Positions 3,166 through 35,278 of a stretch of 36,235 nucleotides of DNA are shown piece by piece (within the stretch, counting starts at the first letter, position 1; every line of letters starts with the position of its first letter). Origin of the DNA: an uncultured virus (IMG/VR IMGVR_UViG_3300033405_000010) (Duplodnaviria > Heunggongvirae > Uroviricota > Caudoviricetes). The translations under genes were made by a program, and so were the position numbers. The notes under the pieces are model-generated. The model did no database searches. It was given only the letters and a program-made list of their open reading frames with translations, and was not told where the DNA came from. The DNA is taken from IMG/VR virus record IMGVR_UViG_3300033405_000010, one strand, 5' to 3'.

Positions 3166-3191
3166 AGGTCTCAAATACCGAGGGCCGGGTG
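3166..3191 (+). promoter_or_regulatory. conserved 26-bp putative late promoter, copy 1
   Basis: AGGTCTCAAATA-CCGAGG-GCCGGGTG, followed by 9 nt and the ATG at 3201. Confidence 0.75.
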
Positions 3192-3200
3192 AGCCGGTCG

Positions 3201-4820
3201 ATGAGCGGCTTCCGGCCCCTTCCGCCGCAGAGCGCGCTTACCGGTCAGACCGCCGTCATCGGCAAACCATTTGTCACCGCGTCGCTGACCGGTTACGAGC
3301 AGACCGGATTCGACAACGCGCGGTGCGATTTCGGGCCCGACAGCCCCGGACCGGGGCCTGACGGCTACAGCGTGACGTACGGTCAGGCCGAAGCGGATGC
3401 CTACCTGAACGCCCACGGCACCGGCATCTGCCTCCTGATGAACGGCGCGACCAAGCTCATCGTGCCGTCGACCGGGAACTACTTCCTCACGCCATCGCAG
3501 TTGGGCGCGGCGGCGACATCGCCGCCCTGGAACACGGTTCAGGCCCCGCCGTTCTACACCGTCTCCGCGGTCGGAACCGCGCAGGGCTATCCCAAGAACA
3601 ACTACGCGCAGTACGGGCCCGACAGCGGCGACACCACGAACGGAATCAACTCGGCCCTGGCGAGCGGTTACTCGGTCCTCATCCTGCCCGGCGACTTCAC
3701 CATCTCGGACCCAATCGTCCCCACCACATCGGGCCAGAAGGTCGTGGGCTCCGGGCTTGACTACACCTACATCGGCCTGGCGGACGGTGCGAACTGCGAC
3801 ATGATTGACATCCCGGTCACGGTGGAGGAGACGCTCGTCAGCAGCCTCACGCTCGACGGGACCCGTACGCATCAGAGCGGTGGAACCGCAGCCATCAACG
3901 TCGGTGGGACCGGAGCGGGGGTCGGGAACTGCTGGCGGACGCATCTCCAGGAACTGAAGATTCTGAACGCTTACGGTGACGGCGTCTGGGCCAACAATCC
4001 CGAGGGCGCGTCGAACACCGAGGAACTCCTCCTGGACCACCTCGACATCGAGAACGTCGGCGGCAGCGGAATCGTGGACAACACCGGGGACTCCGACTTC
4101 AACGAGGTCAACATCGGCAGTCCGATGCTGCATGGATGGTACCACACTGGGACGGACGTCCACGCCAGGGACGTCCACGCCTACAACACCGGTGGGAACG
4201 GCTTCCAAATCGAGGGCGGGAACACCGCGCACCTGGTCGACTGCATCGCGGACACCACCGCGAACCACGGCTTCATCATGGACGCCGCGACCGCGGTCCT
4301 CACCAACTGCGTCGCCTACAACTGCGGCTACGCGGCGGCGAACTCGTACAACGCCTACGTCTTCGGCGCGTCGAGCCAGAACAACACGATGCGGGACTGC
4401 ATCGAGACCGACAGCACCGGCAAGACCTGGTACGCGGTCAAGGAGGCCGTCGGCGGCGACTACAATCAGGTTATCGGCGGCAAGATGCAGAACTACACCG
4501 CCGCCAAGGCCGTTGCGCTGACCGGCCTTCACTCCTTCTCCTCGCAGGTCGGCGGTTGGAACCCACAGGGATTCTCGGCTCCCCAGCCCGCGGTCCCGGC
4601 CTCCGCGTCGACGCAGTTCAACTCCTTTGGGTTCAAGACCCGCGTCTCGCTGACCGGTCTGGGCGGCGGGGTCAGCGCGGTCCAAATCACCGACCCGTAC
4701 GGCGGCTCGCGGACGTACACGAATACATGGTACATCGGGGCATGGTGGGAACTTGAGGTCGCCTACGGAATCGCGCTCACGTACGCCGGTTCTCCAACCT
4801 GGGCGTGGGAGGGTCTATGA
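3201..4820 (+). CDS. right-handed beta-helix (pectate-lyase-fold) protein, putative spike/depolymerase
   Basis: DTTNGINSALASG..VLILPGDFTISDPI..GSG followed by Asn/Gly-rich beta-helix rungs. Start 3201 chosen by match to the paralog N-terminus (MSGFRP vs MSFRP). Confidence 0.8.
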   Translation: MSGFRPLPPQSALTGQTAVIGKPFVTASLTGYEQTGFDNARCDFGPDSPGPGPDGYSVTYGQAEADAYLNAHGTGICLLMNGATKLIVPSTGNYFLTPSQLGAAATSPPWNTVQAPPFYTVSAVGTAQGYPKNNYAQYGPDSGDTTNGINSALASGYSVLILPGDFTISDPIVPTTSGQKVVGSGLDYTYIGLADGANCDMIDIPVTVEETLVSSLTLDGTRTHQSGGTAAINVGGTGAGVGNCWRTHLQELKILNAYGDGVWANNPEGASNTEELLLDHLDIENVGGSGIVDNTGDSDFNEVNIGSPMLHGWYHTGTDVHARDVHAYNTGGNGFQIEGGNTAHLVDCIADTTANHGFIMDAATAVLTNCVAYNCGYAAANSYNAYVFGASSQNNTMRDCIETDSTGKTWYAVKEAVGGDYNQVIGGKMQNYTAAKAVALTGLHSFSSQVGGWNPQGFSAPQPAVPASASTQFNSFGFKTRVSLTGLGGGVSAVQITDPYGGSRTYTNTWYIGAWWELEVAYGIALTYAGSPTWAWEGL

Positions 4821-6283
4821 GTTTTCGACCACAGTTCCCACAAAGCACGCTGAACGGCCTGACTGCGGTCATCGGCAAGCCGGTTGTTACGGTCTCCGCG
4901 GTTGGCTTTGACCAGACCGGCTTTGACAACAACCGCTGTGACTTCGGGCCCGACACACCCGGGGCGGGGGACGATGGCTACACCGTGACGAACGGCGTCA
5001 TGGAGGCGGCGACCGCAGCCACCATCGTCGACCTGACGCCCGGGACGTACACGTTCACCGCTCCGGTCGTCCCGCCGCAGCCGGTCAAGTTTTTGGGCAA
5101 GGGCGCCACCGTCGCATGGGACTCCTCCTCGTTCAGCGCGTTCGAGGTCGGTCAGCCGAACGTCGAAATCTACGACCTCGGCTTCAACGGCCTACAGCCG
5201 ACCCCGAGCTACGCGAACGTCGGCTACTACGGCGTCAGCGTCACTGCGAACACCACGAACCTGAAGGTCAAGCGGTGCACCTTCCAGGACATCTACAACA
5301 TCGGAATCGCGGTCGGACGCGACGTCCAGCCCGCCTACCTCCAGAGCGGCGAGTTCACCGCGAACCAGTTCTACGGCGGCAACTCCGCCATCTCCGGAGC
5401 CATGCGGTACTGCCACCTGGAGCGGAACTACATGAGTCAGGTCGGCGTCTTCGCGTTCGAGTTGGACGGCTCGATTGCGGGCGGTTCGTTCGGGAACACA
5501 GTCACGAAGAACACCTTCCTGACGACTGGCTATGGCGCGCCCGGCGGCCTGTACCCGCACGCGGTCCTCGTCTATGAGTCGATGGACAACCTCATCGAAG
5601 GGAACCTCATCGAGGGGACCCTGGGCTCGGCCGGCATCTCGCTCGACCAATCGGCGTTCTACAACCGCATCCTCGGGAACGACGTCAACACCGGGGCGAC
5701 CGATGGCATCTACCTGCGCCAGTGCGACTACGCTATCGTCAGCGGGAACCACTGCTACAACAACGGCCAATCTGGCCCAGGATTCGCTGGCATCCACGTC
5801 GCGTCGGGCGGCGGCTTGAACATCCCCATCCAGTGCGAACTCATCGGCAACGAGCTATTCGATGACCAGGGCCTGCCGACCCACCCGAGCGGTTCGACGA
5901 CCCAGAGTTACGGGGTCACCATCGACTCCGCGTCCGCTGGGCTCCAAATCATCAGCAACAAGTTCTACCACAACCTCACCGCGCCCATCAACAACTATGC
6001 GTACGCGGCGTACGTCGTTTGGAACCAGGGATTCAATCCGCAGGGTTGGGGCATCACGACGCCGTCCCTGCCAGCAGGAACCGGGTCGGCGAACGCGGCC
6101 CCGAACAACAATCCGTTCCCCGTCCGCATCTACTCGAACGGCGGCGTGGACATGCACATCATCGACACGACGCCCGTCGACCACGACATCGGGAGTTCCC
6201 CGGGCGAGGTCACGCTCGACACCGGTTGCTCTATCTACTGGGCAACCGCTGTCCCGGGGACCTGGTCCTGGTACGGGGTCTGA
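4817..6283 (+). CDS. right-handed beta-helix (NosD/pectate-lyase-like) protein, putative spike; paralog of upstream gene
   Basis: ATGA overlap; LTPGTY..; repeated 'NLIEGNLIE', 'NRILGN', 'IVSGNHC' rungs; N- and C-terminal domains shared with 3201-4820. Confidence 0.8.
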   Translation: MSFRPQFPQSTLNGLTAVIGKPVVTVSAVGFDQTGFDNNRCDFGPDTPGAGDDGYTVTNGVMEAATAATIVDLTPGTYTFTAPVVPPQPVKFLGKGATVAWDSSSFSAFEVGQPNVEIYDLGFNGLQPTPSYANVGYYGVSVTANTTNLKVKRCTFQDIYNIGIAVGRDVQPAYLQSGEFTANQFYGGNSAISGAMRYCHLERNYMSQVGVFAFELDGSIAGGSFGNTVTKNTFLTTGYGAPGGLYPHAVLVYESMDNLIEGNLIEGTLGSAGISLDQSAFYNRILGNDVNTGATDGIYLRQCDYAIVSGNHCYNNGQSGPGFAGIHVASGGGLNIPIQCELIGNELFDDQGLPTHPSGSTTQSYGVTIDSASAGLQIISNKFYHNLTAPINNYAYAAYVVWNQGFNPQGWGITTPSLPAGTGSANAAPNNNPFPVRIYSNGGVDMHIIDTTPVDHDIGSSPGEVTLDTGCSIYWATAVPGTWSWYGV

Positions 6284-6292
6284 AGGAAACGC

Positions 6293-6469
6293 ATGAGCAA
6301 GAGACCCGGGCTACTGCGGTCGCTGGCTTGCGCCCTCCTCGGCCATGTGCCGCCCGTCCTCGGGGTCCCAATCGCGGACGAGAACGGCGAGGTCAACGGG
6401 ACGCTGCGGTGGTGTTCCCGTTGCGGCGTTCTCATCGACGCTCCAGGATGGGGCGCGCCGACAGGATGA
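6293..6469 (+). CDS. 58-aa zinc-binding protein (C..LGH...CSRCG; DUF1660-like pattern)
   Basis: Hand-translated MSKRPGLLRSLACALLGH...WCSRCG; AAGGA upstream. Confidence 0.6.
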   Translation: MSKRPGLLRSLACALLGHVPPVLGVPIADENGEVNGTLRWCSRCGVLIDAPGWGAPTG

Positions 6470-6870: not shown

Positions 6871-7773
6871 ATGAGACCGCAGGGCATCGTCAACGTCCAC
6901 GAACACTTCCAATCGGTCGCCTGCGTGCCGAAGTACCTGGAGGCGATGGAGGCGGTCGGGGTCAACGCGAGCGTCGCCGTCGGCAGCCCCGAGGCGACCA
7001 TCATGCTCGACCGGTCGGGGTTCGAGCGCGAGACCCACTACAACGAGGTAGTCCTGGAGATTGCGAGGCGGTGGCCGCTGCGGTTCCTCGCCTTCCCGAC
7101 CCTGGACCCGGCCGACACGGACAACGTCGAGCGATTGCGCGGCTACCTCAGGAAGGGCGCCAGTGGCCTCAAGCTGTACGGCGGCCACTCGAACTTTCAC
7201 GGCGAGACGCCCCTCGATTGCCCGTCGATGCTCGGCGTCTACGACCTCTGCGAGAAGGAGGGAATCCCGGTCCTCTTTCACGTCAACTGCGGGAAGTACG
7301 GCGAGGAGTTCCGCCGGGTCCTGTCGGCCTTCCCCAGGATGAAGGTCATCTGTCCGCACTTCTGCCTCTCGACCTCCAACCTCGTCCGCTTCCAGGAGTT
7401 CATGGACAACAACCCAGGGCTCTACACCGACGTGAGCCTGGGGCAGATTGACTTCCTGCGCGATGGGCTCCGCCGCATCTCGAAGAGGCCGCGAGCCTTC
7501 CGCGAGGTGCTCACGAAGTACGCCGACCGCATCCTCTTCGGCACCGACATGGTCGTGACGATGGCGGAGTACAAGACCGCGGCGTGGCTCGCGTGGGTGT
7601 CGGGGACCTACCGGCGGATGATGGAGCGCGAGCACTACCGGTTCGATGGCCTTCGACTGAACGGGCTGGCGCTGGACACGGACGTCCTCATGCAGATATA
7701 CGCCACGAACTTTGACCGCGTTGTTTGGACCGGTTCGCCCCGAGCCACGTCTTATATCGCAACTCCCGGATGA
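6871..7773 (+). CDS. amidohydrolase family (Amidohydro_2-type TIM-barrel metallohydrolase)
   Basis: NVHEH, GLKLY, PVLFH, ICPH, LYTDVS and RILFGTD motifs. Confidence 0.85.
   Translation: MRPQGIVNVHEHFQSVACVPKYLEAMEAVGVNASVAVGSPEATIMLDRSGFERETHYNEVVLEIARRWPLRFLAFPTLDPADTDNVERLRGYLRKGASGLKLYGGHSNFHGETPLDCPSMLGVYDLCEKEGIPVLFHVNCGKYGEEFRRVLSAFPRMKVICPHFCLSTSNLVRFQEFMDNNPGLYTDVSLGQIDFLRDGLRRISKRPRAFREVLTKYADRILFGTDMVVTMAEYKTAAWLAWVSGTYRRMMEREHYRFDGLRLNGLALDTDVLMQIYATNFDRVVWTGSPRATSYIATPG
7747..7772 (+). promoter_or_regulatory. degenerate copy of the 26-bp motif / TATA box
   Basis: ACGTCTTATATC-GCAACT-CCCGGATG has the same bipartite spacing and lies upstream of a leader-bearing gene. Confidence 0.45.
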
Positions 7774-7790: not shown

Positions 7791-8543
7791 GTGTGGCAGA
7801 ACCTCGTCCGCGTGCGCCGCCGCGACGGCTCGGCGTACCTGGCGTGGGTCCTCCCGAAGTCCAATCCCCTTCCGCAGCAGGTGGAGACACTCCTACTGCA
7901 CGGTCGCAAGGGTCGGAAGAAGGTCGACCGGAACACCTACCTCGTCCAGGAAGGGGATGGCAGCGTCAGCCTCATCCTTCACCAGACGGACGTGGTCCAC
8001 TACTATCCCGACAAACTCGTACTGCGGACCGGGGGCTGGCACACGATGACGACCCGCGACCGCATCGAGCTGGGGCTCCGCCTCGCCCACATCGGCGGCA
8101 GCATCAGCACGACCGGTCGGGGGGTCGGCGGCCCCTGGCTCTACACCGCGACGGATGGGCAGAGGTTCCCGTTCGACGAGGGGCTCGCGCTCGACTACGC
8201 CGGTAAGGTCCTCAACGCGCGCCCTGGCGGTGAAAAGCCCGAGGACACTGCCATCTCCGAGTCCATCGAGCACTACCTGAAGCTGCTGCGGCGAAAGCTC
8301 ATCGACGTCTCCTGGGACCCTGGCACGGACGAGACGCGGTGGACCGGCGACCTGAAGGAGGCCATCGACCGGGATATGTTCCCATACTCGCTCATCATGC
8401 AGGCGATGGAGGACACCGGCTACCGGACGGACTTCTACGGCGACATCCTCCAGGACCCCAACAAGCGCGGTCAGTTCGACGACACGTTCGTCCGCGCGGT
8501 GCGGCGGTACCTGCGGAAGCACATGCTGAGCTTCGCGCACTGA
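7791..8543 (+). CDS. LVRVRRxDG-leader protein carrying a phage-type LHxT...TGGW.T.TT domain
   Basis: N-terminus MWQNLVRVRRRDGSAYLAWVLPKSNP; LHQTDVV..LRTGGWHTMTTRDRI. Confidence 0.8.
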   Translation: MWQNLVRVRRRDGSAYLAWVLPKSNPLPQQVETLLLHGRKGRKKVDRNTYLVQEGDGSVSLILHQTDVVHYYPDKLVLRTGGWHTMTTRDRIELGLRLAHIGGSISTTGRGVGGPWLYTATDGQRFPFDEGLALDYAGKVLNARPGGEKPEDTAISESIEHYLKLLRRKLIDVSWDPGTDETRWTGDLKEAIDRDMFPYSLIMQAMEDTGYRTDFYGDILQDPNKRGQFDDTFVRAVRRYLRKHMLSFAH

Positions 8544-9256: not shown

Positions 9257-9349
9257 GGGCCTTTGGTGTAACTTGGTAGCACCCGTCGCTTGGGACTGTC
9301 GGAGACAGCAAGAGACGATGAGGTCCGGGTTCAAATCCTGGGAGGCCCA
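9257..9349 (+). tRNA. trnP: tRNA-Pro(TGG) with 20-nt BHB intron at 37/38 (9295-9314)
   Basis: CGTCG/CGATG anticodon stem; central helix CTTG/CAAG flanked by 3-nt bulges GGA and AGA; inner hairpin CTGTC-GGA-GACAG. Confidence 0.9.
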
Positions 9350-11592: not shown

Positions 11593-12335
11593 GTCGGCAC
11601 CACCCGAATGGGTTCGCCAGGCCGCCGTCGGACGACGACGGGCTTCGCCGCGCCCGGGCCCGCCATAGCCGCGAGCGAATAGCAGGGGCAGTAGACCCCG
11701 TCCACCCGAATCGGGATGTGCGGATTGTCGGGGTGGCGCGGATGGTTATGCTGCGCCTGGGGGTAGTGGATGTGCGCGGTCAGCCCGAAGAAGTTGGCCT
11801 TGCGAGCAATCCAATCGTCGAGGATGTTCCAGGGGATTTCGTCCCGCGGAGGAGGAATCCTCTCGCGCATGGCCGGTCCCATCTTCGTGCATCCCAGGCC
11901 GACGAGGTCCGCGTGCTCCAACTGCGCCTCCGGAAAGCTGTAGCCCTTCGTGGCGAACTCGTCCTTCGTCCGGTACGAATGTAACGGCATCTCATGCTCC
12001 ATGCAGATGGACGCCACCGCCTTGTCGCCCATGTGGACGACTTCGAGGTCGCAGAGGTGCAGGACGTAGTCGACCGCGCACCAGCACTCGGTGCAACGGA
12101 CCATCTCCTCCATCTGCCCAGGCCCTGGGACGATGTCGCCTTCCAGGACCATGAGGTCCCCATCGCAGGACCAGAGCCGGTTCAGTTCCCGCGCGTAATC
12201 GCCGGGGTCCTCGACCCGTCCTTCGAGCACGACGACCTCCCAGTCCTTCGGGACCGTCTTCAGGTACTCGCGCGACTGCTGCTGCTGCTTCTCGAACTCT
12301 TCGCCGTACCTGCACGCGAAGAGGAGCGTCGTCAC
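11589..12335 (-). CDS. GT-A fold glycosyltransferase-like protein
   Basis: GTGA overlap with the tfb stop; DLMVLEGDIVP (ExD), GLGCTK, late HxH. Confidence 0.6.
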   Translation of the reverse strand: MTTLLFACRYGEEFEKQQQQSREYLKTVPKDWEVVVLEGRVEDPGDYARELNRLWSCDGDLMVLEGDIVPGPGQMEEMVRCTECWCAVDYVLHLCDLEVVHMGDKAVASICMEHEMPLHSYRTKDEFATKGYSFPEAQLEHADLVGLGCTKMGPAMRERIPPPRDEIPWNILDDWIARKANFFGLTAHIHYPQAQHNHPRHPDNPHIPIRVDGVYCPCYSLAAMAGPGAAKPVVVRRRPGEPIRVVPT

Positions 12336-13375
12336 ATCTCGCCGACCAGGGCCGCCCACTGCGGGCAGAATGTAGTGTGCCCTGGGGCGGAGAATCGACC
12401 GTGCAGTGTGGCGGGCGCGTCGGGGTCGATGCCGTTCGCTTTCGCAATCTTGTGGTAGTGGTTTCGGATGGTCACTGCCGTGACGCCGCAAGCCCGTGCC
12501 AGGGTCTCCTGATTAACGCCGATGCCCGTGAGGTTCCGCTGTCGCGCGGCCATGTAGACCGCTCCCCCCGCGACACCCTGGGGCATGTACGGACCTTCAA
12601 GCGGACCGCTGACGTAGCCTGCCGCCTCCCGCGCGACGGCGGTGGGCAGCGAGAACTCGTTGACGAGGTGAGCGATGATTTCGGGAGCCGAGTGCTGGAC
12701 GGGCATGAAGCCCATGTCTCGCTCCATCATGTTCATCGCCTTCAGCGCGGTGAACCGAGAGCGCAGGCCGAAGGCGTGGATGATTCGGCTCGTGCTGATG
12801 AAAAGGTGGTCGCGGCGAGAGATGTAGATGATGACCGCCGCCATCGTGACCTCGACCCTGGGGAGGACGCGGCGCGACTTGCACTCGCGCCACAGGACGA
12901 GGAGCTTGAGCGCCTCGTCGGCCGACCGCGGGGGTAAGCCGAGTTCGAGCGCGACCGACCGGACCTGGTGGGCTCCCGCGAGGAACCGCGAGCGATGCCC
13001 CAGGTCGTGCCGGTCGGCGGCGGCGACTCGGCGCCACTGACGCTTCACCCTCTCGGAGCCCTGTACGCCCTGCCATCCGATGGGGCGATGCGAGGAGAGC
13101 GACCGGAAGCTCGGCGTCGCTGGCCCGTGCGAGAGACCGCTCCCGTGTCGAGCGCCCATCACGTCGTACGTGTTGATGCCGCGCATGTCAACCGGGGAGG
13201 AGTCCAGGACGAGACCGCACTCCGTGCAAATCCGCTCCGACGTGTGCACGTCGGTCACCTGAGACGGGTGCGTACAAGCGGCAGACAAAGTGCCCGCGTT
13301 TGTCATCGAAAGCGTCGTCCCGGTGGCGAAGATGTCTGACGACGAGGTATAGGTCCGAACGGATTTGGCCCCCAT
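12332..13375 (-). CDS. tfb: transcription initiation factor IIB (TFB) homolog, divergent
   Basis: Zn ribbon CTHP...ERICTECGLVL; two cyclin repeats; C-terminal PQGVAGGAVYMAA...QETLARACGVTAVTIRNHY helix-turn-helix. Confidence 0.88.
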   Translation of the reverse strand: MGAKSVRTYTSSSDIFATGTTLSMTNAGTLSAACTHPSQVTDVHTSERICTECGLVLDSSPVDMRGINTYDVMGARHGSGLSHGPATPSFRSLSSHRPIGWQGVQGSERVKRQWRRVAAADRHDLGHRSRFLAGAHQVRSVALELGLPPRSADEALKLLVLWRECKSRRVLPRVEVTMAAVIIYISRRDHLFISTSRIIHAFGLRSRFTALKAMNMMERDMGFMPVQHSAPEIIAHLVNEFSLPTAVAREAAGYVSGPLEGPYMPQGVAGGAVYMAARQRNLTGIGVNQETLARACGVTAVTIRNHYHKIAKANGIDPDAPATLHGRFSAPGHTTFCPQWAALVGEM

Positions 13376-13401: not shown

Positions 13402-13410
13402 TACTTAAAC
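13402..13410 (-). promoter_or_regulatory. TATA box for the tfb operon
   Basis: GTTTAAGTA about 30 nt upstream of ATG 13375. Confidence 0.55.
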
Positions 13411-14096: not shown

Positions 14097-14122
14097 AACC
14101 CGGCTGAGGCTATTTGAGCCCT
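14097..14122 (-). promoter_or_regulatory. conserved 26-bp putative late promoter, copy 2
   Basis: AGGGCTCAAATA-GCCTCA-GCCGGGTT. Confidence 0.7.
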
Positions 14123-14782: not shown

Positions 14783-14903
14783 GAGCCGAGGATAGCTTCG
14801 CGCTATTTAGACGTGCCTTCTCGGCCATCGCTTCCCCGCAGACCCCATCGCAGCCCGGAACCTGCCAGCACTCGCAGAAGAGGCCGGGGAGGCAGTCACA
14901 CAT
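14742..14903 (-). CDS. possible 53-aa Cys-rich peptide (MCDCLPGLFCECWQVPGCDGVCG...)
   Basis: ATG overlaps the phosphatase stop; six Cys in 22 aa; but it overlaps the next gene by about 40 nt. Confidence 0.3.
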   Translation of the reverse strand: MCDCLPGLFCECWQVPGCDGVCGEAMAEKARLNSAKLSSARARGGPPRGQEPG

Positions 14904-15273: not shown

Positions 15274-15295
15274 TCCGGGCTCACCAACCGCCCTA

Positions 15296-15374: not shown

Positions 15375-15377
15375 GTT

Positions 15378-26810: not shown

Positions 26811-26812
26811 CT

Positions 26813-27283
26813 TCACTCCGTGGAGAACGCAATCGTCTCCGCCTTGCGCCACCGTGGGCCGCTGTTAGGGGGGTAGAGGACCCATCGCTCGGCCTCCCAC
26901 TTCCCGCGCCCCTTGGCGCGGGTAATCCAAATCTCGCCCTGGCCGACGAGGGGGCCGGCCATGCGGTTCTCTCCGTAGTCGAACCGCCGGCGCCGCAACT
27001 CCTCGCTGTCCGGAAGGTCGCCCGGGATGTAGCCGATGGGGATGGTCAGGTAGTCGCCCTTCTCGACCTCGAATCGGGTGATGATGGCGAAGTACGGTTG
27101 GTCGGGGTCGTCGATGCCCCTGGGGATGATGGGCTTCACGCTCCACTCGCGCTCGTAGTAGTACTTGGCGATGGCAAGCGCGATGGGGTCGTTCGTCTGG
27201 AACTTGTCCGTGGGCCGGTCGTCGTACGAGTCCATCGGCACCACCGGATTCGACTTGAGCTTTGGAGGAAGTTGCTCGCGCAT
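26813..27283 (-). CDS. hypothetical protein, N-terminus MREQLPPKLKSNP
   Basis: 156-aa ORF in the operon; GAGGGT RBS. Confidence 0.7.
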   Translation of the reverse strand: MREQLPPKLKSNPVVPMDSYDDRPTDKFQTNDPIALAIAKYYYEREWSVKPIIPRGIDDPDQPYFAIITRFEVEKGDYLTIPIGYIPGDLPDSEELRRRRFDYGENRMAGPLVGQGEIWITRAKGRGKWEAERWVLYPPNSGPRWRKAETIAFSTE

Positions 27284-27297
27284 GGTGCTCGGACCCT

Positions 27298-27540
27298 CTA
27301 CCCACCTCCGGCTACTTGAGGATGCACACGAGCGTAGCAGACGTCCATCGAGACGGGGCGATAGGGCCAGATGCGGCCTTCGAGGCCGTCCAGCACGCGC
27401 ACGACCTGTTCCTCGGGGAGTCGGACCGCCTGAGCCACCTTCGCGGCGTCGATGCCGTCCCACCCGCCGCGCTCTATCTCGTCCATGTGGTGGAGGGTCA
27501 GGTGGCGGACGACGATTTCCTCCGCTCTACAGTCCATCAT
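27298..27540 (-). CDS. small winged-HTH-like protein
   Basis: IDAAKVAQAVRLPEEQVVRVLDGLE. Confidence 0.55.
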   Translation of the reverse strand: MMDCRAEEIVVRHLTLHHMDEIERGGWDGIDAAKVAQAVRLPEEQVVRVLDGLEGRIWPYRPVSMDVCYARVHPQVAGGG

Positions 27541-27865
27541 GGTGCTTCCCCTGCCGGGCCGCGTAGATGGCCAGGGCCGCAACCGCTGCCCCCGCGAGGT
27601 ACTCCGCCGTGTCGAGCAAGCTCGCCTCGTAGGTGTCCCCCTCGTAGATGGTGTCGTAGATGGGGTCCTTGATGGTGGCGAAGGCGAAGACCGCGAAGAT
27701 GCCCGCGGGTATCGCGTCCGGGCGTTTCGGCCAGAACACGGCCGCCGCCGTCACGACGAGGGCGCCGAACGAGAGGTGGAGCAGGTCGGCGACCAGCCGA
27801 AGGCTCGGCGGGCTCACCGGCATCTCGTTGGAGGGAGGCCAGACGATTGGGAGTTGCCACTGCAT
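27527..27865 (-). CDS. three-TM membrane protein
   Basis: Three hydrophobic segments; DLLH...KDPIYD...DTAEY pattern. Confidence 0.7.
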   Translation of the reverse strand: MQWQLPIVWPPSNEMPVSPPSLRLVADLLHLSFGALVVTAAAVFWPKRPDAIPAGIFAVFAFATIKDPIYDTIYEGDTYEASLLDTAEYLAGAAVAALAIYAARQGKHHDGL

Positions 27866-27881
27866 ACCCCCTCAACACACC

Positions 27882-28874
27882 TCAGTGCACTTCCGCAATC
27901 ACGTCGATGGCCGACTCGGCCGCCTCCGCATCGTCCGCCGCAGTCGCCGCGTAGATGTCCGCGAACGACGAGTAGGTCGCCGCCAGGTCGGACTCGCTCG
28001 TCGCGGCAGCGAGGTCCGTGAACGACGCGCTGAGGCTGTCGGCGCTCGCAATCGCAGGGTCGCCCGAAGCCATCGTCCGCAGCGCCGTGCTCGCGTCGTC
28101 GGCGCTGGTCGCGCCGCTGTCCACGTCCGTGATGGCCTTGGCCTGAGCCCCGGCCTGCCCGGCCGCTCCGGGACTGAAGTCGTCCCCGACCTCGACGTCG
28201 TCCGGGTCCTCGGGCGGGTTGCCCTTTCCGTTCTTGGCCGAGTAGACTTTGCTCCACACGTAGGCACGGTAAGCGAAGGCGCCGACGCCGATGGCCGCTA
28301 GGCCACCCGCGAAGAGAGCGAACGCCCAGCCGACCTCCTTCAGGGTGTTGTCGAGGGTCTGACCCGGGGTAGGAGCCGACGGTCCGCAGGCCGCGGCCAT
28401 CTGCGACTGCACCGTCGCGGCCTGGCTCTGGAGGGACTGGATTTCCGCCTGCTGCTGGGAGGTGTACGAACCCCCGACCTTGTAGGCCGCGAGGTTGACG
28501 TTGTTGATTTGCGTGTAGAGGGATGCGAGTTCGCTGGTCAGTTGGTTGCAGGCCGCGGGGTTGTTCGCGGGCGGGTTGAGGGCCCCGGCGACCGTGCCGA
28601 CGAGGTAGTAGAGGACGACCCCGACCACTCCGACCACGGCGGCGACCCCTGCGGCGATGAGGACCGTCTTGCCGTGCTTCTCGAACCATGTGCCCTTGGT
28701 CGCCTTCTGCGCTGCCGCGGTGGTCTTCGTCTTGACCGTCTGGTACGTCGCACGAACGCGCTGACGCACCGTCTTCTTCTTGGCCGGGTTCGTACGGACG
28801 CGGAGGACCGGAACGTAGACGACCTTGTTGTTCACCAGTCGCGGAACCTTCTTCGGCCTCACTTTCACGTACAT
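27882..28874 (-). CDS. two-TM coiled-coil protein with basic N-terminus ending RTNP and acidic Ala-rich tail
   Basis: VPVLRVRTNP; TM VLIAAGVAAVVGVVGVVLYYL; Cys-closed coiled-coil hairpin; second TM. Confidence 0.8.
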   Translation of the reverse strand: MYVKVRPKKVPRLVNNKVVYVPVLRVRTNPAKKKTVRQRVRATYQTVKTKTTAAAQKATKGTWFEKHGKTVLIAAGVAAVVGVVGVVLYYLVGTVAGALNPPANNPAACNQLTSELASLYTQINNVNLAAYKVGGSYTSQQQAEIQSLQSQAATVQSQMAAACGPSAPTPGQTLDNTLKEVGWAFALFAGGLAAIGVGAFAYRAYVWSKVYSAKNGKGNPPEDPDDVEVGDDFSPGAAGQAGAQAKAITDVDSGATSADDASTALRTMASGDPAIASADSLSASFTDLAAATSESDLAATYSSFADIYAATAADDAEAAESAIDVIAEVH

Positions 28875-29851
28875 GAGCACCCGTTGTCAACTCCTGTGTT
28901 GTCGCAACACATATCGACGCTCGCGGCCACGACGATTTGAGTCTGAATGGACGTCCCCGATACGGTCACGGTGATGGTCCCTACCTGACCACCGTCCACC
29001 TCCGAGCACTGCGAGCCCTGCCCGTTGCCGCCGCAGAGATTCGAGATGCAGTTGGTGTACGGCGGGTTGCCTCCGTTCTGGAAGGACGTCGGGACGGTGC
29101 CCATCTGCACGGGAACGAGAGCGTAGCCGTCGGAGTTGGTCGTTCCGGAGGTCTCAGAAAGGCTCGCCTGCCCGTTAATCGTGTAGCTCAGGAGGACGCC
29201 CGCCATCGGGAATCCGTACTGGTCAAGCACGCGGACGTTCGTCGCCGCGCTGCCGCCCTGGTAGCTGAAGTTGCATGGCCCCGCGCTCGTGCAGTCGAAG
29301 ACCCAGTAGCACTCGGTGTAGCTGTAGTTCGCCGTGGTGGGAATCGTGATGGAACTGTCCTGCGCCGTGAGGCTCGTTGCCACCGGGACGTAGCAGGCAC
29401 CCTGGTTGCAGGAGAAATCCTGCGAGCCGAGGCAGCCACAGTCGCTCTGGCAGGAGGCTCCGTTCGCGCAGGTGCAGGTTCCCGCGCAGCCCGTCCCCTC
29501 GACGCAGTAGCCGTTCTGGCAGGTCTCTCCCGCCATGCACTCGCTGTTGTTCGTGCAGGCGACGCCGGCACTTATGCAGGTGCCTCCCGAGCACTGCTCA
29601 CCCGAAGGGCACTGGGAATCGCTCGTGCACCCACCGCCGCCCCCGCCTCCCCCGTAGGTCTTGATGAGGTAGTAGACGCCAACGCCCGCCGCCGCGGCGA
29701 CCGCGCCGCCGATGGCGAGGGGAATCCATACCGACGTCTTCTTGGGGGGCGCCGGGGCAGGAGCCGCCGGGTTCGTTCGATGCCGAACGACGGGGATGGG
29801 TCGAACCCGAAGGGGCGCTACCCTGGCTCGAACGGGGGCCGGACCACTCAT
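28865..29851 (-). CDS. membrane-anchored Cys-rich protein with Ig-like (Big_1-type) domain
   Basis: PLRVRPIPVVRHRTNP, TM, repeats CTSDSQCPSGEQC..G.C, VLDQYGFPMAGV...TTNSDGYA. Confidence 0.82.
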   Translation of the reverse strand: MSGPAPVRARVAPLRVRPIPVVRHRTNPAAPAPAPPKKTSVWIPLAIGGAVAAAAGVGVYYLIKTYGGGGGGGGCTSDSQCPSGEQCSGGTCISAGVACTNNSECMAGETCQNGYCVEGTGCAGTCTCANGASCQSDCGCLGSQDFSCNQGACYVPVATSLTAQDSSITIPTTANYSYTECYWVFDCTSAGPCNFSYQGGSAATNVRVLDQYGFPMAGVLLSYTINGQASLSETSGTTNSDGYALVPVQMGTVPTSFQNGGNPPYTNCISNLCGGNGQGSQCSEVDGGQVGTITVTVSGTSIQTQIVVAASVDMCCDNTGVDNGCSCT

Positions 29852-29859
29852 GGCGGCCC

Positions 29860-30486
29860 TCAGACCGATGTCGGCCCGTTTCTGCTGCTCGGCCCGTTCG
29901 TCTTCGGCCCGTTCGAGGAAGCGAGGGAGACCGTCACCTGGACGGTGTTGCTCGAAGCGCCGGCCGACGTGTCCTGGGCCACGATGTTGTACGTTGTCAT
30001 CATGTTCGCGGGCAGAGACGACGTCAGCAGGAGACGTGGGTTGGGGACGGGCCCGTTCGGGTTCAGGCCGAAGATGGTGCTGGCGTTGAAGTTCCCGTTC
30101 TGGTCGAACGTCCCGGCTGCGATGGTCGTGGTCGAGCCCATGTTCGTGCCGGAAATGACCGCCGAGTTGATGACGACCGCGTCGCCGGGCTTGCCGTTCG
30201 TCACCGCGATGGGCACCGTGATGCCCGGCATGACGTTGGCCAGGCCCGTGTCACCGTTGACGGTCAGCGTCGGGCCAGGCGAGCCCGTGCCGGTAACGAT
30301 GGACCCGTTGCCGCTCGCGGGCTGCTTTCGAGTGAGGTAGTAGGCGAGGCCGATGACGGCGGCGGCGGCGAGCCCAAGCCCCAGTGCGATGCCCAACTGC
30401 TTCTTCTTCTTCGCGGCCATCGGGTTCGGCTTGATGCCTAGTTTCGACGGCTGGAGGCGGATTTTCAGCTTCGGTTTGGTCGCCAT
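29860..30486 (-). CDS. membrane-anchored Ig-like beta protein
   Basis: KLKIRLQP..IKPNP, KKKK, TM, Thr/Asn-rich beta domain ending SNTVQVTV. Confidence 0.8.
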   Translation of the reverse strand: MATKPKLKIRLQPSKLGIKPNPMAAKKKKQLGIALGLGLAAAAVIGLAYYLTRKQPASGNGSIVTGTGSPGPTLTVNGDTGLANVMPGITVPIAVTNGKPGDAVVINSAVISGTNMGSTTTIAAGTFDQNGNFNASTIFGLNPNGPVPNPRLLLTSSLPANMMTTYNIVAQDTSAGASSNTVQVTVSLASSNGPKTNGPSSRNGPTSV

Positions 30487-30488
30487 TT

Positions 30489-31691
30489 TCACACCATGTT
30501 CACTCGGTTCTTGTAGTAGGTGAAACCGTAGTCCTGGCCGTTCCCGTTGTCACCCGTCGGGTAACGGTCACTGCGGATGGTCCCGCCACGGCCCGCGGCA
30601 GCAATCGCGGGGAAGGCCGTCTCGCGCGCCGGGAAAGCCTTGCCGCAGCAGGCTTTGTTCCCGCCCGCGCCGTACTGCCGGACCAACGGGCCCGGACCGG
30701 TCATCGTGACGTTGTCCATGATGGAGAAGGCGAGACCGCCGCCGCCCGCACCGTACTGGCGCACGCGCGGACCGGGGCCCGTCATCGTCACGTTGTCCAT
30801 GATGGTGTAGACCCTCGGGCGCGTGGGGAGGGGACGCGAGCCGATGACCGGCATGGCGATGCCGGTACCGCCCGCGCCGTACTGGGCGACGCGAGGGCCG
30901 GGCCCGGTCATGGTCACGTTGTCCATGATGGTGTAGACCTTCGGTCGGGCGTAGAGCGGGCGCGCGCCAATCACGGGCAGGACTACCTGCATGTTGTTTC
31001 CTCCGATGTTCCCAAACTGAGCGCCGTAGTCACCGATGCGAGACGGGACGGCGGGCGCGGCGTAGGTCCTTCCGGACTGGTAGATTCGCTGACCGGTCCC
31101 TCCACCGCCCGCTCCGTAGCTCGGCATGGGAGCGCGGGGCGAGACGATGCCGGAGCCGGTGCGCGGACCCCAGTAACCGTACTGCAACGGAATCTTGGTC
31201 CCTGGGATGACGGGCGCGGCCCTCGCGGGCCACACGCCATGCCCGACCGTTCCGATTTCCTTGAGTTGGGGAATCGTCGGCATCATCTGCGGAAGCGGCT
31301 TCGTCACGTACGGACCCCATGTTTCGAGGCCGCCGGCGCCAACCTTTCCGCCGTAGGCGGGAGGGGACTGGACGGCTGGGACGGGCTCGATTCCGGGGGG
31401 CGTCGAGGCCCATGCCGAGGGGCCGGACGACTGGGGCACCTGTTGGCCCGCGACGGTGGCCGACGGGTTGACTCCTACGTTCTGCGTCGAGGTCGAGCCC
31501 GGCATGACGGGCGAGGCTGGCGACCCGCCGCCCGAGGACTGCTTCGTGACGACGTAGAGCACAGTGGCCCCGACAGCTACGGCTCCGAGCCCGCCCACCA
31601 CGATGGCCAGGTCCCGAGACGAGGGGTTCGGCTTCGAAGACTTTGCCGCGATGGCACGGACCTTGAGGGGTGCTACCTTCACGGGGGGCAT
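30489..31691 (-). CDS. membrane-anchored Gly/Pro-rich repeat protein
   Basis: ATG 9 nt after motif copy 4; PLKVRAI..KPNP, TM, three IMDNVTMTGPGP.V.QYGAGG repeats. Confidence 0.8.
   Translation of the reverse strand: MPPVKVAPLKVRAIAAKSSKPNPSSRDLAIVVGGLGAVAVGATVLYVVTKQSSGGGSPASPVMPGSTSTQNVGVNPSATVAGQQVPQSSGPSAWASTPPGIEPVPAVQSPPAYGGKVGAGGLETWGPYVTKPLPQMMPTIPQLKEIGTVGHGVWPARAAPVIPGTKIPLQYGYWGPRTGSGIVSPRAPMPSYGAGGGGTGQRIYQSGRTYAAPAVPSRIGDYGAQFGNIGGNNMQVVLPVIGARPLYARPKVYTIMDNVTMTGPGPRVAQYGAGGTGIAMPVIGSRPLPTRPRVYTIMDNVTMTGPGPRVRQYGAGGGGLAFSIMDNVTMTGPGPLVRQYGAGGNKACCGKAFPARETAFPAIAAAGRGGTIRSDRYPTGDNGNGQDYGFTYYKNRVNMV
30661..30980 (-). repeat. intragenic repeats: 3x IMDNVTMTGPGPxVxQYGAGG and 2x PVIGxRPLxxRPxVYT
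   Basis: Protein-level repeats with synonymous differences; GTTGTCCATGAT occurs three times on the + strand. Confidence 0.85.
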
Positions 31692-31700
31692 CCCTAGAGC

Positions 31701-31726
31701 CACCCGGCTCAGCCTATTTGAGCCCT
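31701..31726 (-). promoter_or_regulatory. conserved 26-bp putative late promoter, copy 4
   Basis: AGGGCTCAAATA-GGCTGA-GCCGGGTG, followed by 9 nt and the ATG at 31691. Confidence 0.75.
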
Positions 31727-31736
31727 AAGTCGAGCG

Positions 31737-31919
31737 TCACCACTTCCCGATGGGGCAGTGCTGGTTCGGCATCCGCGTTTTGAGGTTCATCCAGCACTTG
31801 CAGATGTGGCACTGCAACTGCCCGGCGGGGTAGACAATCGCGTTCTCGCAGTCGAGGCAGATGTTGAACCGTTGCTGCGCGTTGGACGACTGACCGGGGA
31901 AGTGCAGCGTGAAGCTCAT
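31737..31919 (-). CDS. small Cys-rich protein (R..IC..C...C..C.C...KT....CP..KW; DUF6171-like pattern)
   Basis: RFNICLDC..QCHICKCWMNLKTRMPNQHCPIGKW. Confidence 0.75.
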   Translation of the reverse strand: MSFTLHFPGQSSNAQQRFNICLDCENAIVYPAGQLQCHICKCWMNLKTRMPNQHCPIGKW

Positions 31920-31920
31920 G

Positions 31921-32244
31921 TCACTGCTCGATGACGGTATTCTGCGTCAGTAGAGAATACCTTCGGATGACGTCCTGGCCCAAGGCCGTCACCGTCGAGG
32001 GCACGAGGAGGAACTGAACCGGCATCGCCGGACCGCCGTGGAAGGAGACCATAACGGTCGCCATCGGAATCATCGTCGGCCCGTTCGCCGTCTCGATGGG
32101 GACCTCCTGGTACGGCTGGATGTTGAGTTCGGCGGCGATGTCCTGTGGGAGCAGCGACCACGAGGCGAGCGTGTCGAGCGCGAAGTCCAGTGTCACGTTC
32201 CCGTAGTCGGTGATGAGCGTGGCACGCTCCGTGAAGGGCTGCAC
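31921..32244 (-). CDS. retropepsin-like (clan AA) aspartic protease homolog with DTL in place of DTG
   Basis: FALDTLASWSLLP..IA..L, ETANG flap, ALGQD; 107 aa. Confidence 0.75.
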   Translation of the reverse strand: MQPFTERATLITDYGNVTLDFALDTLASWSLLPQDIAAELNIQPYQEVPIETANGPTMIPMATVMVSFHGGPAMPVQFLLVPSTVTALGQDVIRRYSLLTQNTVIEQ

Positions 32245-32601
32245 CTACGCTACCTTCCTGGGTGCGATGGACTTGAGGTATTCGACGGCGGGCGGTGGCG
32301 GGTAGCTCGGAGGCTGCGGGACCCGACGCGTGAGCATCGGAGGGACGCCGGCCGTGCCGGGGGTGGGGAAGACGTGGTCCATGAGACCGCGCCGTGCGAG
32401 ACGGTAGTTCTCGCGGGAGTCACGGTAGTGGATGTTGCGGCAGTGCATCTCCATGTCGTACTTCATCTCCTCGATGTCGCGGCCGACGGAGACGAAGTGG
32501 CAGCCGGGGAACGTGCACGGACTCCCCATCTTCCGCTCGCGGAACGGGGCGTCAAGTTTCACCGGCATCGGGCGCACGAATCCGGGCTCTTCAATCGGCA
32601 T
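32245..32601 (-). CDS. C2H2-like zinc finger protein
   Basis: CTFPGC...MEMHCRNIH; TAATG overlap. Confidence 0.7.
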   Translation of the reverse strand: MPIEEPGFVRPMPVKLDAPFRERKMGSPCTFPGCHFVSVGRDIEEMKYDMEMHCRNIHYRDSRENYRLARRGLMDHVFPTPGTAGVPPMLTRRVPQPPSYPPPPAVEYLKSIAPRKVA

Positions 32602-32993
32602 TACGACCCCACCCACGCCATGCCGACCGGCATAGCGTGGTACCTAAAGTCTTCTCCGGCGCGATGCGGACGCCCCTCTTTGCACGCCGGGCAGCCGGAG
32701 GCCGCACCGACCTTGGCGACATCCTCCCGGAGGTCCTTGTAGGGGTACCTCCGCTCGTTCATCTTGGAGCCGCGGAAGATTCCCTTCAACTGCTCGGGCG
32801 TGTGCTTGTGGGCGTGGAACTTCAGCGAGCCCTTGGCGTGAACGTGACGGTGCTTGTGCTCGAACTGAATCATCCCCTTGCCCTTCACAATCATCCAGTG
32901 CTTGTGGGGATGGTCGTGGGTCGTCGCGGGGTTCTCCATGACCTCGGCCAGGTACTTCGTCCCGTCCTTGCGGACCACACGGACCAGCGTCAT
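32601..32993 (-). CDS. LVRVRRKDG-leader protein, His-rich
   Basis: MTLVRVVRKDGTKYLAEVMENP; HDHPHKH, HKHRHVH, HAHKH, CPAC..PH. Confidence 0.8.
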   Translation of the reverse strand: MTLVRVVRKDGTKYLAEVMENPATTHDHPHKHWMIVKGKGMIQFEHKHRHVHAKGSLKFHAHKHTPEQLKGIFRGSKMNERRYPYKDLREDVAKVGAASGCPACKEGRPHRAGEDFRYHAMPVGMAWVGS

Positions 32994-34471
32994 GCCCTCA
33001 CCACGTTGTAGCCGTAGGCGAGCATCGCCGGTGGGCTCACGTTAGACGGCGAGCCGGAGGTCGAGTGGCAAGTCCCCGAGCCGCCCTTACCGGTCTGGCA
33101 GGAGCAGCCCGCTGGGCACCCGGCGTCCTTCCCGCAGCCGTACTGGGTGCACGAGTCGGGGAGCGTGCAGCCGCCGGCGACCGAGACCGTCACCTGGTTC
33201 GAGGTCGTGCCTGAGGTGTTGTCCTTGACGTAGAAGGTGAGGTTCTCGGCGGTGTACTGCTGGTCCACGCACGCCTTGAAGCTCGCCACGCCGCTGGAGT
33301 TCGCGTTCGTGCTGCCCCAGTACGTGCCGCCCGTGTCGTAGACCTCGATGTTGTCGCCCGAGTCGGCGCCGGTGACGCTCACGGTGAAGCAGCCCGAACA
33401 GCTTGAGCCCGAAGGGGTCAACGACGAGGGCGAGACCGTGATGGTCGGAGTCGCCGCCGTGACAACCTTCGTGCAGCAGCAGTTGGTGCAGGTGTAGCCG
33501 GTCGTGCAGTCGTCCACGGTGCGGCAGTACGCCTCGGGCTCGGTGTTGGGGCATCCCGACGGGATGGCGGATTCGCAGCAGTTCATGCCGGGAATCTGCT
33601 TCGTGCAGTTCGGGCACTTCCCGCTGACGAAGCCCGTGTTCGGCGACAGGCACTGGGCCGTGCAGCAGTCCGGGTATTGGCCGTCCGGGTACCGCGTCGT
33701 GCCCGAAGGACAGGAGCTTCCGGCCGCGGCGTAGACATCGTCGGTGCTTCCACAACACGCACCTCCGCTGATGCAGGTACCCGACGTGCACGTCCCCTTC
33801 GTGCAGGACGGCGAGCAAGCGCCGCAGCTTGGCGCGGTCGACATGCAGCAGGTCAGGTTGTTCGGGTCCCGATAGGGGTAGCCCGGCGGGCAGGTGTCCG
33901 CGTAGACGTTAATCATCTCCTCGCCCGGTGGGCAGTTGACCTTGGTCACGCACATTCCGGGCGACTGACAGACCTGACCCGAGGGGCAGGGCCCGTCGTA
34001 GCAGTTCGGACCCCCGCACGCCGTGCAGCCGCATTTCCCGTTGATGCAGGTCTGCCCAGCGAGGGAGCAGGTTCCGTTAGGGCAGGAGGACGAGCAGGCA
34101 CCGCACGCACCGCCGGAGCAGACGCCGTTTTGGCAGGTGCCCGAGGTACAGGTGCCGTTGGGGCATGTAGAAGAGCAGGGCGACGTGGACGTGCATCCCG
34201 TGGATGGCATACAGCAGCCGGTGCTGCTCGGGTCGGCCACGTAGCCCGACGGGCAGATGCCGCTCGTCGTCATCGGCATGTCCGGCGATTCGCACGCCGT
34301 GCCTCCGGGCTTCGACGTCAGGTACCACACGAGGACGCCGATGCCGATTCCGGCGGCCGTGACGCCGCCGATGATGGCGACGTTCCCAGCAGCCGAGGGG
34401 TTCTTCTTCTGGGGCCGCGGCCGGAGTACCGGTCTAACGAGGAGTTTCGGGGACTTTCTCGGAGGGACCAT
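32990..34471 (-). CDS. membrane-anchored, extremely Cys-rich protein with Ig-like domain
   Basis: PKLLVRPVLRPRPQKKNP, TM, many CP.G.C and CC repeats, beta domain ending SNQVTVSV. Confidence 0.85.
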   Translation of the reverse strand: MVPPRKSPKLLVRPVLRPRPQKKNPSAAGNVAIIGGVTAAGIGIGVLVWYLTSKPGGTACESPDMPMTTSGICPSGYVADPSSTGCCMPSTGCTSTSPCSSTCPNGTCTSGTCQNGVCSGGACGACSSSCPNGTCSLAGQTCINGKCGCTACGGPNCYDGPCPSGQVCQSPGMCVTKVNCPPGEEMINVYADTCPPGYPYRDPNNLTCCMSTAPSCGACSPSCTKGTCTSGTCISGGACCGSTDDVYAAAGSSCPSGTTRYPDGQYPDCCTAQCLSPNTGFVSGKCPNCTKQIPGMNCCESAIPSGCPNTEPEAYCRTVDDCTTGYTCTNCCCTKVVTAATPTITVSPSSLTPSGSSCSGCFTVSVTGADSGDNIEVYDTGGTYWGSTNANSSGVASFKACVDQQYTAENLTFYVKDNTSGTTSNQVTVSVAGGCTLPDSCTQYGCGKDAGCPAGCSCQTGKGGSGTCHSTSGSPSNVSPPAMLAYGYNVVRA

Positions 34472-34487
34472 CTGCTATCCCTCCCAT

Positions 34488-34784
34488 CTACTCGCGGTGC
34501 AGGTGCGCCCCGATGCACACTGGACTGTTGATTCCGTGACGGTGGGCCGCGTGACAGATGCGGTATAGCCCTCCGGGGCACTTCAGCGTCCGCTTCTGGC
34601 GGTAGCGGGCGAGCGCGTTCCGAACGTGCGCGGCATCGTTGATGGGGTACTTGCGCTGGAGCGGGCACGCGAACGAACTCGTCCGCAGCCTCTGACGCTT
34701 CGCGTAGGAGAGGCGCGGGTTCTCTTCGATGACCTCGGCGAGGTAGGACGTTCCGTCTTTGCGGCGCACTCGTACTAGCTGCAT
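34488..34784 (-). CDS. LVRVRRKDG-leader protein with DUF6582-like domain
   Basis: MQLVRVRRKDGTSYLAEVIEENP, then RQRL..SSFA.P..RKYPINDAAHVRNALAR. Confidence 0.8.
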   Translation of the reverse strand: MQLVRVRRKDGTSYLAEVIEENPRLSYAKRQRLRTSSFACPLQRKYPINDAAHVRNALARYRQKRTLKCPGGLYRICHAAHRHGINSPVCIGAHLHRE

Positions 34785-34785
34785 T

Positions 34786-34986
34786 TCATGCCCCCTTGCC
34801 CAGCAGGTATCCGAAGAGCAATCCGACTGCTCCGACCGCGCCGACCTGCCACAGCGCGTACTCTCTCCGCGTGACGGCCCCGAACGCGGCGTGCTCCAGC
34901 CGCTGGACACGGTATCCCGGATTGCTGCTCACGACCTGCGCGAGGTAGCTCGTTCCATCCTTTCGGCGTACGCGGACTAGCTGCAT
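34786..34986 (-). CDS. LVRVRRKDG-leader protein with C-terminal TM
   Basis: MQLVRVRRKDGTSYLAQVVSSNP...ALWQVGAVGAVGLLFGYLLGK. Confidence 0.8.
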   Translation of the reverse strand: MQLVRVRRKDGTSYLAQVVSSNPGYRVQRLEHAAFGAVTRREYALWQVGAVGAVGLLFGYLLGKGA

Positions 34987-35243
34987 CGGAACATCCCCTT
35001 GTGCATGGCCCTCAGACTGCGAATGTCACCCCTCAGGGCCTTGAGTTCAGGGCCGGCGCGGCGAATTGCGCCCGCGCTCAGCATGACGGCAATCCGATTC
35101 CAACGGTGCTCCATCGTCCTGACCAAGCGCATCTCCGCGCACTCGTGGCGTCGCATCGCGGAGGGCTTGATGTAGGGATTGTCCGCGACCATTTCCGCCA
35201 TGTAGGAGGAGCCGTCCTTCCTGCGGACTCGGACGACCTTCAT
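34977..35243 (-). CDS. LVRVRRKDG-leader protein, basic helical
   Basis: MKVVRVRRKDGSSYMAEMVADNP; ATG 9 nt after motif copy 5. Confidence 0.8.
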   Translation of the reverse strand: MKVVRVRRKDGSSYMAEMVADNPYIKPSAMRRHECAEMRLVRTMEHRWNRIAVMLSAGAIRRAGPELKALRGDIRSLRAMHKGMFRCS

Positions 35244-35252
35244 CGCTTTCCC

Positions 35253-35278
35253 CACCCGGCTCTCGGCTTATGAGACCT
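35253..35278 (-). promoter_or_regulatory. conserved 26-bp putative late promoter, copy 5
   Basis: AGGTCTCATAAG-CCGAGA-GCCGGGTG, followed by 9 nt and the ATG at 35243. Confidence 0.72.

Follow-up and report, generated by a model that had tools for sequence, protein, structure and literature searches.

A repeated 26-nt motif in a putative virus genome from peat is probably a core promoter and shares its two boxes with a tRNA-Pro promoter of soil Thermoplasmata

Archaea have promoter-proximal elements, among them the haloarchaeal −10/−11 element and the proximal element known from Thermococcales. Such elements are named in the accessible text of PMC5316973, and repeated promoters have been described in archaeal viruses. 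In halovirus HF2, intergenic repeats of class I (58 bp) and class II (29 bp) were proven to be promoters by reporter assays and primer extension; these repeats have a TATA box ∼26 nt before the start and require a conserved block around the start (PMC8707807, available part). In SIRV2 and other archaeal viruses, early genes share a conserved regulatory sequence around the promoter core, according to the portion of PMC11065993 at hand. Here we describe a 26-nt motif present in five near-identical copies between the genes of a 36,235-nt stretch of DNA (hereafter the window) that is recorded as an uncultured virus in IMG/VR (IMGVR_UViG_3300033405_000010). A first-pass annotation had proposed this motif as a candidate virus-specific late promoter. 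Our analysis suggests that each copy is probably a complete, strong archaeal core promoter for a messenger RNA that starts at the ATG, and that the same two boxes stand before a cellular tRNA gene in one order of Thermoplasmata.

The motif resembles the HF2 repeats, as far as these are described in the accessible text, in that near-identical repeats occur only between genes and in one orientation, combine a TATA box with a block towards the start, and head long transcription units. Unlike the HF2 repeats, which are A/T-rich, it has a G-rich proximal block, its predicted start is the ATG itself, its core is common to a cellular tRNA promoter, and it is known here from sequence alone. There is no sequence likeness to HF2: megablast with positions 1-25000 of the window, and tblastn with two of its proteins (a 400-residue protein and a homologue of transcription factor B, TFB), gave no match in a collection of phage records. 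As in SIRV2, in the part of that work available, many genes of one genome share a promoter together with its flank, and the core used by the virus is the same as in host genes with strong expression. However, the SIRV2 type marks early anti-defence genes and has a B recognition element (BRE) rich in A, followed by TTTAWATA, whereas the genes headed here resemble envelope or spike genes, and their boxes are different. Like the archaeal proximal elements, the conserved block lies between the TATA box and the start, ∼10–14 nt before the start, but the described elements are A/T-rich and the block here is G-rich with a single conserved T. Our search of open-access papers and preprints turned up no account of a G-rich proximal element for Thermoplasmata.

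The whole window was scored with the 26-nt pattern AGGKCTCAWAWR-N6-GCCGGGTK, with up to three mismatches allowed. Five matches were found, all with 0 mismatches, and nothing extra appeared even at ≤3 mismatches; shuffles of the window (n = 100) gave a mean of 0.03 matches, and a count of five was reached in 0/100. The five places named in the first-pass annotation are hence exact, namely copy 1 at 3166-3191 (+), copy 2 at 14097-14122 (−), copy 3 at 19432-19457 (−), copy 4 at 31701-31726 (−) and copy 5 at 35253-35278 (−). The claimed distance of exactly 9 nt to an ATG was likewise found in 4/5 copies, with ATGs at 3201 (copy 1), 19422 (copy 3), 31691 (copy 4) and 35243 (copy 5). Copy 2 ends in T instead of G and has no start codon at +9, its next ATG being at 14024, 72 nt on. 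Copy 5 reads TCATAAG in its TATA part and begins on the final base of the preceding gene's stop codon. The aligned copies have 20 fixed positions, and conservation stops sharply at the limits of the 26 nt; the 9-nt gap itself is unconserved, with a G directly before each of the four ATGs. The two halves of the motif occur together, the sole other exact GCCGGGTG in the window lying inside a gene at 33117-33124 (−).

Scored by a weight matrix, the five copies reach 34–40 bits, the next best site in the window has 9.6 bits, and the top score per window in 20 shuffled windows ranges from 7.0 to 17.2 bits. A sixth, degenerate copy had been proposed at 7747(+); this site scores 9.4 bits, within the range of the shuffled maxima, and we do not retain it as a copy, although a TATA-like box is present there. 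All five copies fall in the 10.8% of the window left unannotated by the annotation made in this analysis, and each begins 0–20 nt past the stop of a same-strand gene and points to the next gene. By our own arithmetic, five sites would all be unannotated and co-oriented by chance with a probability of ∼5e-7. Occurrence in equal measure inside genes or in both orientations, which would speak against a promoter, was not what we observed: every copy lies between genes and has the orientation of the gene that follows it.

With the A of the ATG as +1, TCAAATA spans −30 to −24 in 4/5 copies, as a TATA box would, and the AAATA at −28 to −24 agrees with the earlier proposal that the AT-rich part stands at TATA distance. 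The bases just upstream, AGGK, are purine-rich rather than A-rich. In the accessible part of the GeneMarkS-2 paper (PMC6028130), 11/11 Thermoplasmata genomes are classed with frequent leaderless transcription and have a promoter box ∼22–26 nt before gene starts. Other genes of the window have TATA-like boxes 21–26 nt before their starts. A core Shine-Dalgarno word at −18 to −4 was found in 0/4 motif-led genes and in ∼15/39 other gene models; this absence may favor a leaderless reading, weakly because 24 of the other gene models also lack such a word. The motif-led open reading frames of copies 4 and 5 have paralogues elsewhere in the window whose first residue is at the same position of a common leader, which shows that the ATG is the true start there and not the in-frame GTG 12 nt upstream.

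The same boxes also stand before a cellular gene that needs no ribosome site. In three Thermoplasmata genomes (G084, G099 and G134), TCAAATA, a spacer of 5–6 nt and GCCGGGTG precede the mature 5′ end of tRNA-Pro(CGG) by 14 nt, a gene present in 166/186 genomes of the order. We read 32 loci of this gene, representing 31 distinct upstream regions, and counted the alignment columns by eye. A TATA-like heptamer was present in 31/31 regions and lay exactly 27 nt before the tRNA in 22/31, with TCAAATA as the consensus heptamer of the lineage. Conservation of the boxes was counted among the 23 diverged regions with a heptamer-to-tRNA spacing of 26–27 nt: a T stands 12 nt past the heptamer in 21/23, GTG occupies +11 to +13 past the heptamer in 17/23, and GTGG is found in 16/23, with flanks that vary freely around both boxes. 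Both boxes, kept while the flanks vary, are under selection here, and since the gene is never translated, the proximal block is a transcription element rather than a ribosome site. That the proposed proximal element is real is supported by this layout, which also answers the concern, raised in the first-pass annotation itself, that GGGTG might be a Shine-Dalgarno site. The description of the TATA box as weak is not supported, since TCAAATA is the consensus heptamer of the lineage's own tRNA-Pro(CGG) promoter.

We propose that TBP would bind the heptamer TCAAATA (motif positions 6–12) and that TFB would contact AGGK just upstream as well as the DNA just downstream of the heptamer. The G-rich block ending in GGGTG (−18 to −10) would act as a promoter-proximal element at the upstream edge of the melting region. 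RNA polymerase would then start 24 nt past the heptamer's final A; in four copies this position coincides with the A of the ATG, and the mRNAs would be leaderless. At tRNA-Pro(CGG) the same rule would place the start on a purine ∼4 nt before the mature end. Behind copy 2, the gene has a Shine-Dalgarno-like run of its own and would instead be preceded by a leader of ∼62 nt. With near-identical copies at their heads, the five transcription units, which encode beta-helix, membrane-type and common-leader proteins, would fire in the same way. The element may thus have copied the promoter type of one Thermoplasmata order. The binding proteins, the transcription start, the promoter strength and the timing are what we infer from this arrangement of boxes.

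The fixed distance to the ATG in 4/5 copies, and the position of the copies close behind co-directional genes, could also suggest a translation start signal on polycistronic RNA, with GGGUG as a Shine-Dalgarno-like site and the upstream half bound by a translational factor. GGUG can pair with the 3′ end of 16S rRNA, to which it is complementary. The motif further resembles repeats of mycobacteriophages, namely the start-associated sequences (SAS/ESAS) of Cluster K and the stoperators of Cluster A, which in the accessible text of PMC3203893 are short, asymmetric, one-orientation repeats before start codons; as with SAS/ESAS, which often overlap the upstream stop codon, the motif precedes unrelated genes. 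However, SAS as described there are bacterial sequences that stand 3–7 bp before the start, include AGGAG and do not occur in the host genome. Neither a 3–7 bp spacing nor a Shine-Dalgarno core was found at the motif, which lies 9 nt from the ATG, has no AGGAG, carries a TATA-like box, lacks a start codon at copy 2 and has its core also before a tRNA gene. The gene behind copy 2 starts at 14024 with its own G-rich Shine-Dalgarno-like run, the A/T-rich part stands at the position of a TATA box, and both boxes are kept before the untranslated tRNA gene, so we consider a translation signal improbable.

Collections of metagenome contigs and genome contigs were scanned with a 25-nt pattern of the motif. 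There were 99 single matches in metagenome contigs and 63 in genome contigs, about the level expected by chance, and an ATG stood at +9 in 7/162. Six of these seven fell into two groups of near-identical bacterial sequences, in which the ATG opens 7–23 codons and the match reads as antisense to conserved coding motifs, and they were dropped as chance. The seventh (L107) was kept. It belongs to a Thermoplasmata genome (G001), where an exact 26-nt copy at G001:C12:2958-2983 is followed by 9 nt and an ATG. On the same contig, at a distance of 1.8 kb and in the opposite direction, a 3-mismatch copy adjoins the broken frame of a phage integrase. In G036, another genome of this order, a copy with 1 mismatch has an ATG at +8, and the G001 and G036 copies share bases just outside the 26 nt as well. 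No protein is common to the window and the G001 or G036 loci, which could represent a degraded relative of the element whose homologous part lies outside the 36 kb window. Beyond the integrase and the motif copies, G001 contig 12 (L166, 1-11000) contains SMODS, SAVED and TIR domain genes, a deaminase and two DDE transposases; the locus, which lies at a contig end, is a mobile or defence island.

The core WMAWATA-N5-6-GCCGGGTG gave 7 matches across the order's 186 genomes, compared with 1 for the control, or 6 when a genome flagged as unpublished is set aside, and 7/7 matches read TCA[AT]ATA although eight heptamers were allowed. Among the matches in a 401-genome phylum sample, the one in G264 appears to be a true copy. 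The exact and 3-mismatch copies in G001, the 1-mismatch copy in G036 and the core at cellular tRNA-Pro promoters mean that the motif is not specific to the virus. The earlier proposal of a virus-specific promoter is retained in its archaeal leaderless-promoter geometry, its genomic context and its real proximal block, and given up in its claim of viral specificity.

Since the same 26 nt appear in otherwise unrelated DNA (the window, G001 and G036), with copies near contig ends and adjoining an integrase fragment, they might be a short mobile or recombination module that sits at the boundaries of gene blocks and has spread among mobile elements with no role in expression. Such a module leaves unexplained why the ATG follows after exactly 9 nt, why a single orientation is kept and why two boxes are conserved at an orthologous tRNA promoter, and we give it very little credence.

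Another possibility, which adds to the promoter reading and is compatible with it, is that the promoters contain an added operator, AGGK and the GCC before GGGTG being bound by a dedicated regulator of the element or the host that switches the five units together. The copies are far more alike than promoter function demands (each scores 34–40 bits, and no site falls between 10 and 34 bits), upstream bases of the AGG type are seen again in the copies in mobile-looking DNA (G001, G036 and G264) and not at tRNA promoters, and the promoter activity of halovirus HF2 needs a conserved block around the start site (PMC8707807). However, there is no candidate regulator common to the window and the G001 or G036 loci, the conserved block has no clear palindrome, and three tRNA-Pro promoters have the full GCCGGGTG with no link to a mobile element. 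An operator of this kind seems to us unlikely, if well worth keeping in mind.

By eye, individual copies allow short inverted repeats, such as a 6-bp stem in copy 4, and copy 3 folds better than its shuffles (z = −2.48), as might be expected of a structured RNA signal, a hairpin for processing, termination or attenuation. The other 4/5 copies show no advantage in folding over their shuffles (z = −0.01 to −0.34), and each gives a different structure; the consensus fold has only −4.9 kcal/mol with an unfavorable covariation term, and Rfam finds tRNAs alone in the window and no family at the motif sites. The RNA-structure reading is largely refuted and has scarcely any probability left in our estimate.

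Several observations weigh against the copies being core promoters of the kind proposed. The two-box layout is absent from 6/6 other tRNA upstream regions, so that it would be one promoter type and not the general promoter of the host. The T of the proximal block lies 13 nt past the heptamer in the window and 12 nt past it at the tRNA, and the bases upstream of the heptamer are AGGK in the window and mostly CAC-G at the tRNA promoters. The ATG after the exact copy in G001 opens just 41 codons. The full 26-nt pattern at ≤2 mismatches occurs 13 times in the 186 genomes of the order and 14 times for the control; the core is at background level in the 401-genome phylum sample (9 vs 7); and CTCAAATA with an ATG 14–32 nt on has only 6 occurrences, in three genomes. 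A T-rich terminator is not evident between the upstream same-strand gene and each copy, and because the copies trail co-directional genes in this way, read-through RNA would carry the motif. Pairing of GGUG with 16S rRNA makes a second, translational role on such read-through RNA possible. Window DNA is present in six peat metagenome runs, and none of these is on record as RNA.

A host among the archaea is indicated by a TFB homologue and an intron-bearing tRNA-Pro in the window, and motif copies are found in Thermoplasmata genomes. The tRNA-Pro(TGG) gene lies at 9257-9349 (+), where ARAGORN with intron search places a 20-nt intron at the usual site in the anticodon loop; when no intron search is made, ARAGORN reports a tRNA with a four-base anticodon for the same interval. 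The TFB homologue (12332-13375, −) has a cyclin repeat and a zinc ribbon, and its nearest cellular relatives are archaeal TFBs. The stored protein has 284 residues, whereas the open frame from the ATG at 13375 has 347 and adds the zinc-ribbon match. A TATA-like box at 13402-13409 stands 26 nt before this ATG, for which reason the 347-residue form is probably real. Protein relatives of the TFB have 75% and 67% identity. Alignment of the TFB found no confirmed relative in metagenome contigs or genome contigs, and no close relative was found in the 186 genomes of the Thermoplasmata order with the window TFB as query. On the strength of the shared promoter style, this order is the probable host lineage.

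Two promoter styles can be distinguished in the window: the five copies with AGGK and the extended GCCGGGTG, versus two TATA-like boxes preceded by ACGT and lacking the GCCGGGTG block. The latter are found at 7747-7772(+), before 7791-8543, and at 14804-14811(−), before 14132-14782. An ACGT before the heptamer also occurs in several host tRNA-Pro promoters, and the ACGT-type boxes may be a second promoter style of the element. We speculated that the element's TFB could be the reader of the motif promoter class, which is possible but unproven. A stronger version, in which this TFB prefers the AGGK class and redirects the host RNA polymerase to one gene set much as phage sigma factors do in bacteria, strikes us as doubtful. 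If true, it would constitute an archaeal promoter class defined by a virus-encoded general transcription factor; virus-encoded TFBs have already been published, with no promoter class of their own assigned in the accessible parts of PMC10768690 and PMC13700489.

Turning to the genes behind the copies, copy 1 (+) heads 3201-4820 and 4805-6283, both of which encode right-handed beta-helix domains. Copy 2 (−) heads 13470-14024, whose product has several hydrophobic stretches. Copy 3 (−) heads 18865-19422 and then 18464-18862, 17901-18464 and 17137-17904, the latter three with a common N-terminal leader. Directly after the last gene of the copy 3 unit lies the most A/T-rich block of the window (17120-17134), which is T-rich on the coding (−) strand and may be a terminator. 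Copy 4 (−) heads 30489-31691, 29860-30492, 28865-29851 and 27882-28880. Copy 5 (−) heads 34977-35243, which encodes a leader-bearing protein of 88 residues, together with the genes down to 31737. Hydrophobic stretches and the common leader were read by eye. The first-pass annotation held that the motif heads runs of spike, membrane and leader-bearing genes; the beta-helix domains, the hydrophobic stretches and the common leader fit this description, whereas no capsid, portal or packaging protein is recognised in the window.

The N-terminal leader of ∼25 residues is common to six proteins, encoded at 34977-35243(−), 34488-34784(−), 18464-18862(−), 17901-18464(−), 17137-17904(−) and 7791-8543(+), and consists of a hydrophobic-basic start, RRKDG, an aromatic residue and Asn-Pro. 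Beyond the leader these six proteins are unrelated to one another, and one of them had only two relatives (61% and 45% identity) in a search of 5.8 billion proteins. The leader may be a targeting signal or a cleaved pro-peptide. The products of 32990-34471(−), 30489-31691(−), 29860-30492(−), 28865-29851(−) and 27882-28880(−) have a basic N-terminus, Asn-Pro and one hydrophobic helix, and end in a part rich in Cys, Gly or repeats. These five proteins look like anchored envelope or spike proteins, and none of them could be assigned to a family. A gene for a retropepsin-like protease is located at 31921-32244(−).

The window has a G+C content of 65% and contains 15 tRNA genes in two clusters. A tRNA-like stretch at ∼15290-15375(−) has a clear T-arm and matching acceptor ends and is called by neither ARAGORN nor Rfam; as a candidate attachment site it was set aside, because only 24–32 nt T-arm matches were found in the Thermoplasmata order, which gives no host link. 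The recognisable proteins are the TFB homologue, two right-handed beta-helix proteins, an AAA_5 ATPase, a methyltransferase, a dual-specificity phosphatase and the retropepsin-like protease. Almost none of the window proteins belongs to a known family, and an NCBIfam search added no function; for the 400-residue protein, ESM Atlas gave no usable match. IMG/VR scans with the motif, the 400-residue protein and the TFB returned no match. That the element is a virus is plausible; it is known here from the genes of the window, none of which is recognised as of capsid or packaging type. Among the contigs that carry its proteins, the longest has 98,235 nt.

Positions 16236-36235 are present in four peat DNA runs. 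No difference is listed at the three motif copies held there, and strain variation is therefore uninformative on the motif. In four peat runs, the summed contig depth over 20905-21571 and 28242-28908 is 4–10× that of neighboring bins, and loose ends and small insertions or deletions are numerous there; the two intervals are probably low-complexity or repeat-like coding sequence that other organisms have as well.

The motif introduces no new principle, since archaeal viruses with repeated promoters and viral copies of strong host promoters have been described before. Its value lies first in a host lead for an orphan peat element of at least 98 kb, whose promoter style matches one order of soil Thermoplasmata; we know of no cultured virus system for those soil Thermoplasmata. 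The comparison also exposes, in an uncultured lineage, a conserved G-rich promoter-proximal element (GTGG ∼11–14 nt past TCAAATA) that is seen independently at an orthologous tRNA promoter. For the element itself, the copies define five units that would be co-regulated, together with true start codons, in a genome where almost no protein has a family, which should aid annotation and work on the common leader.

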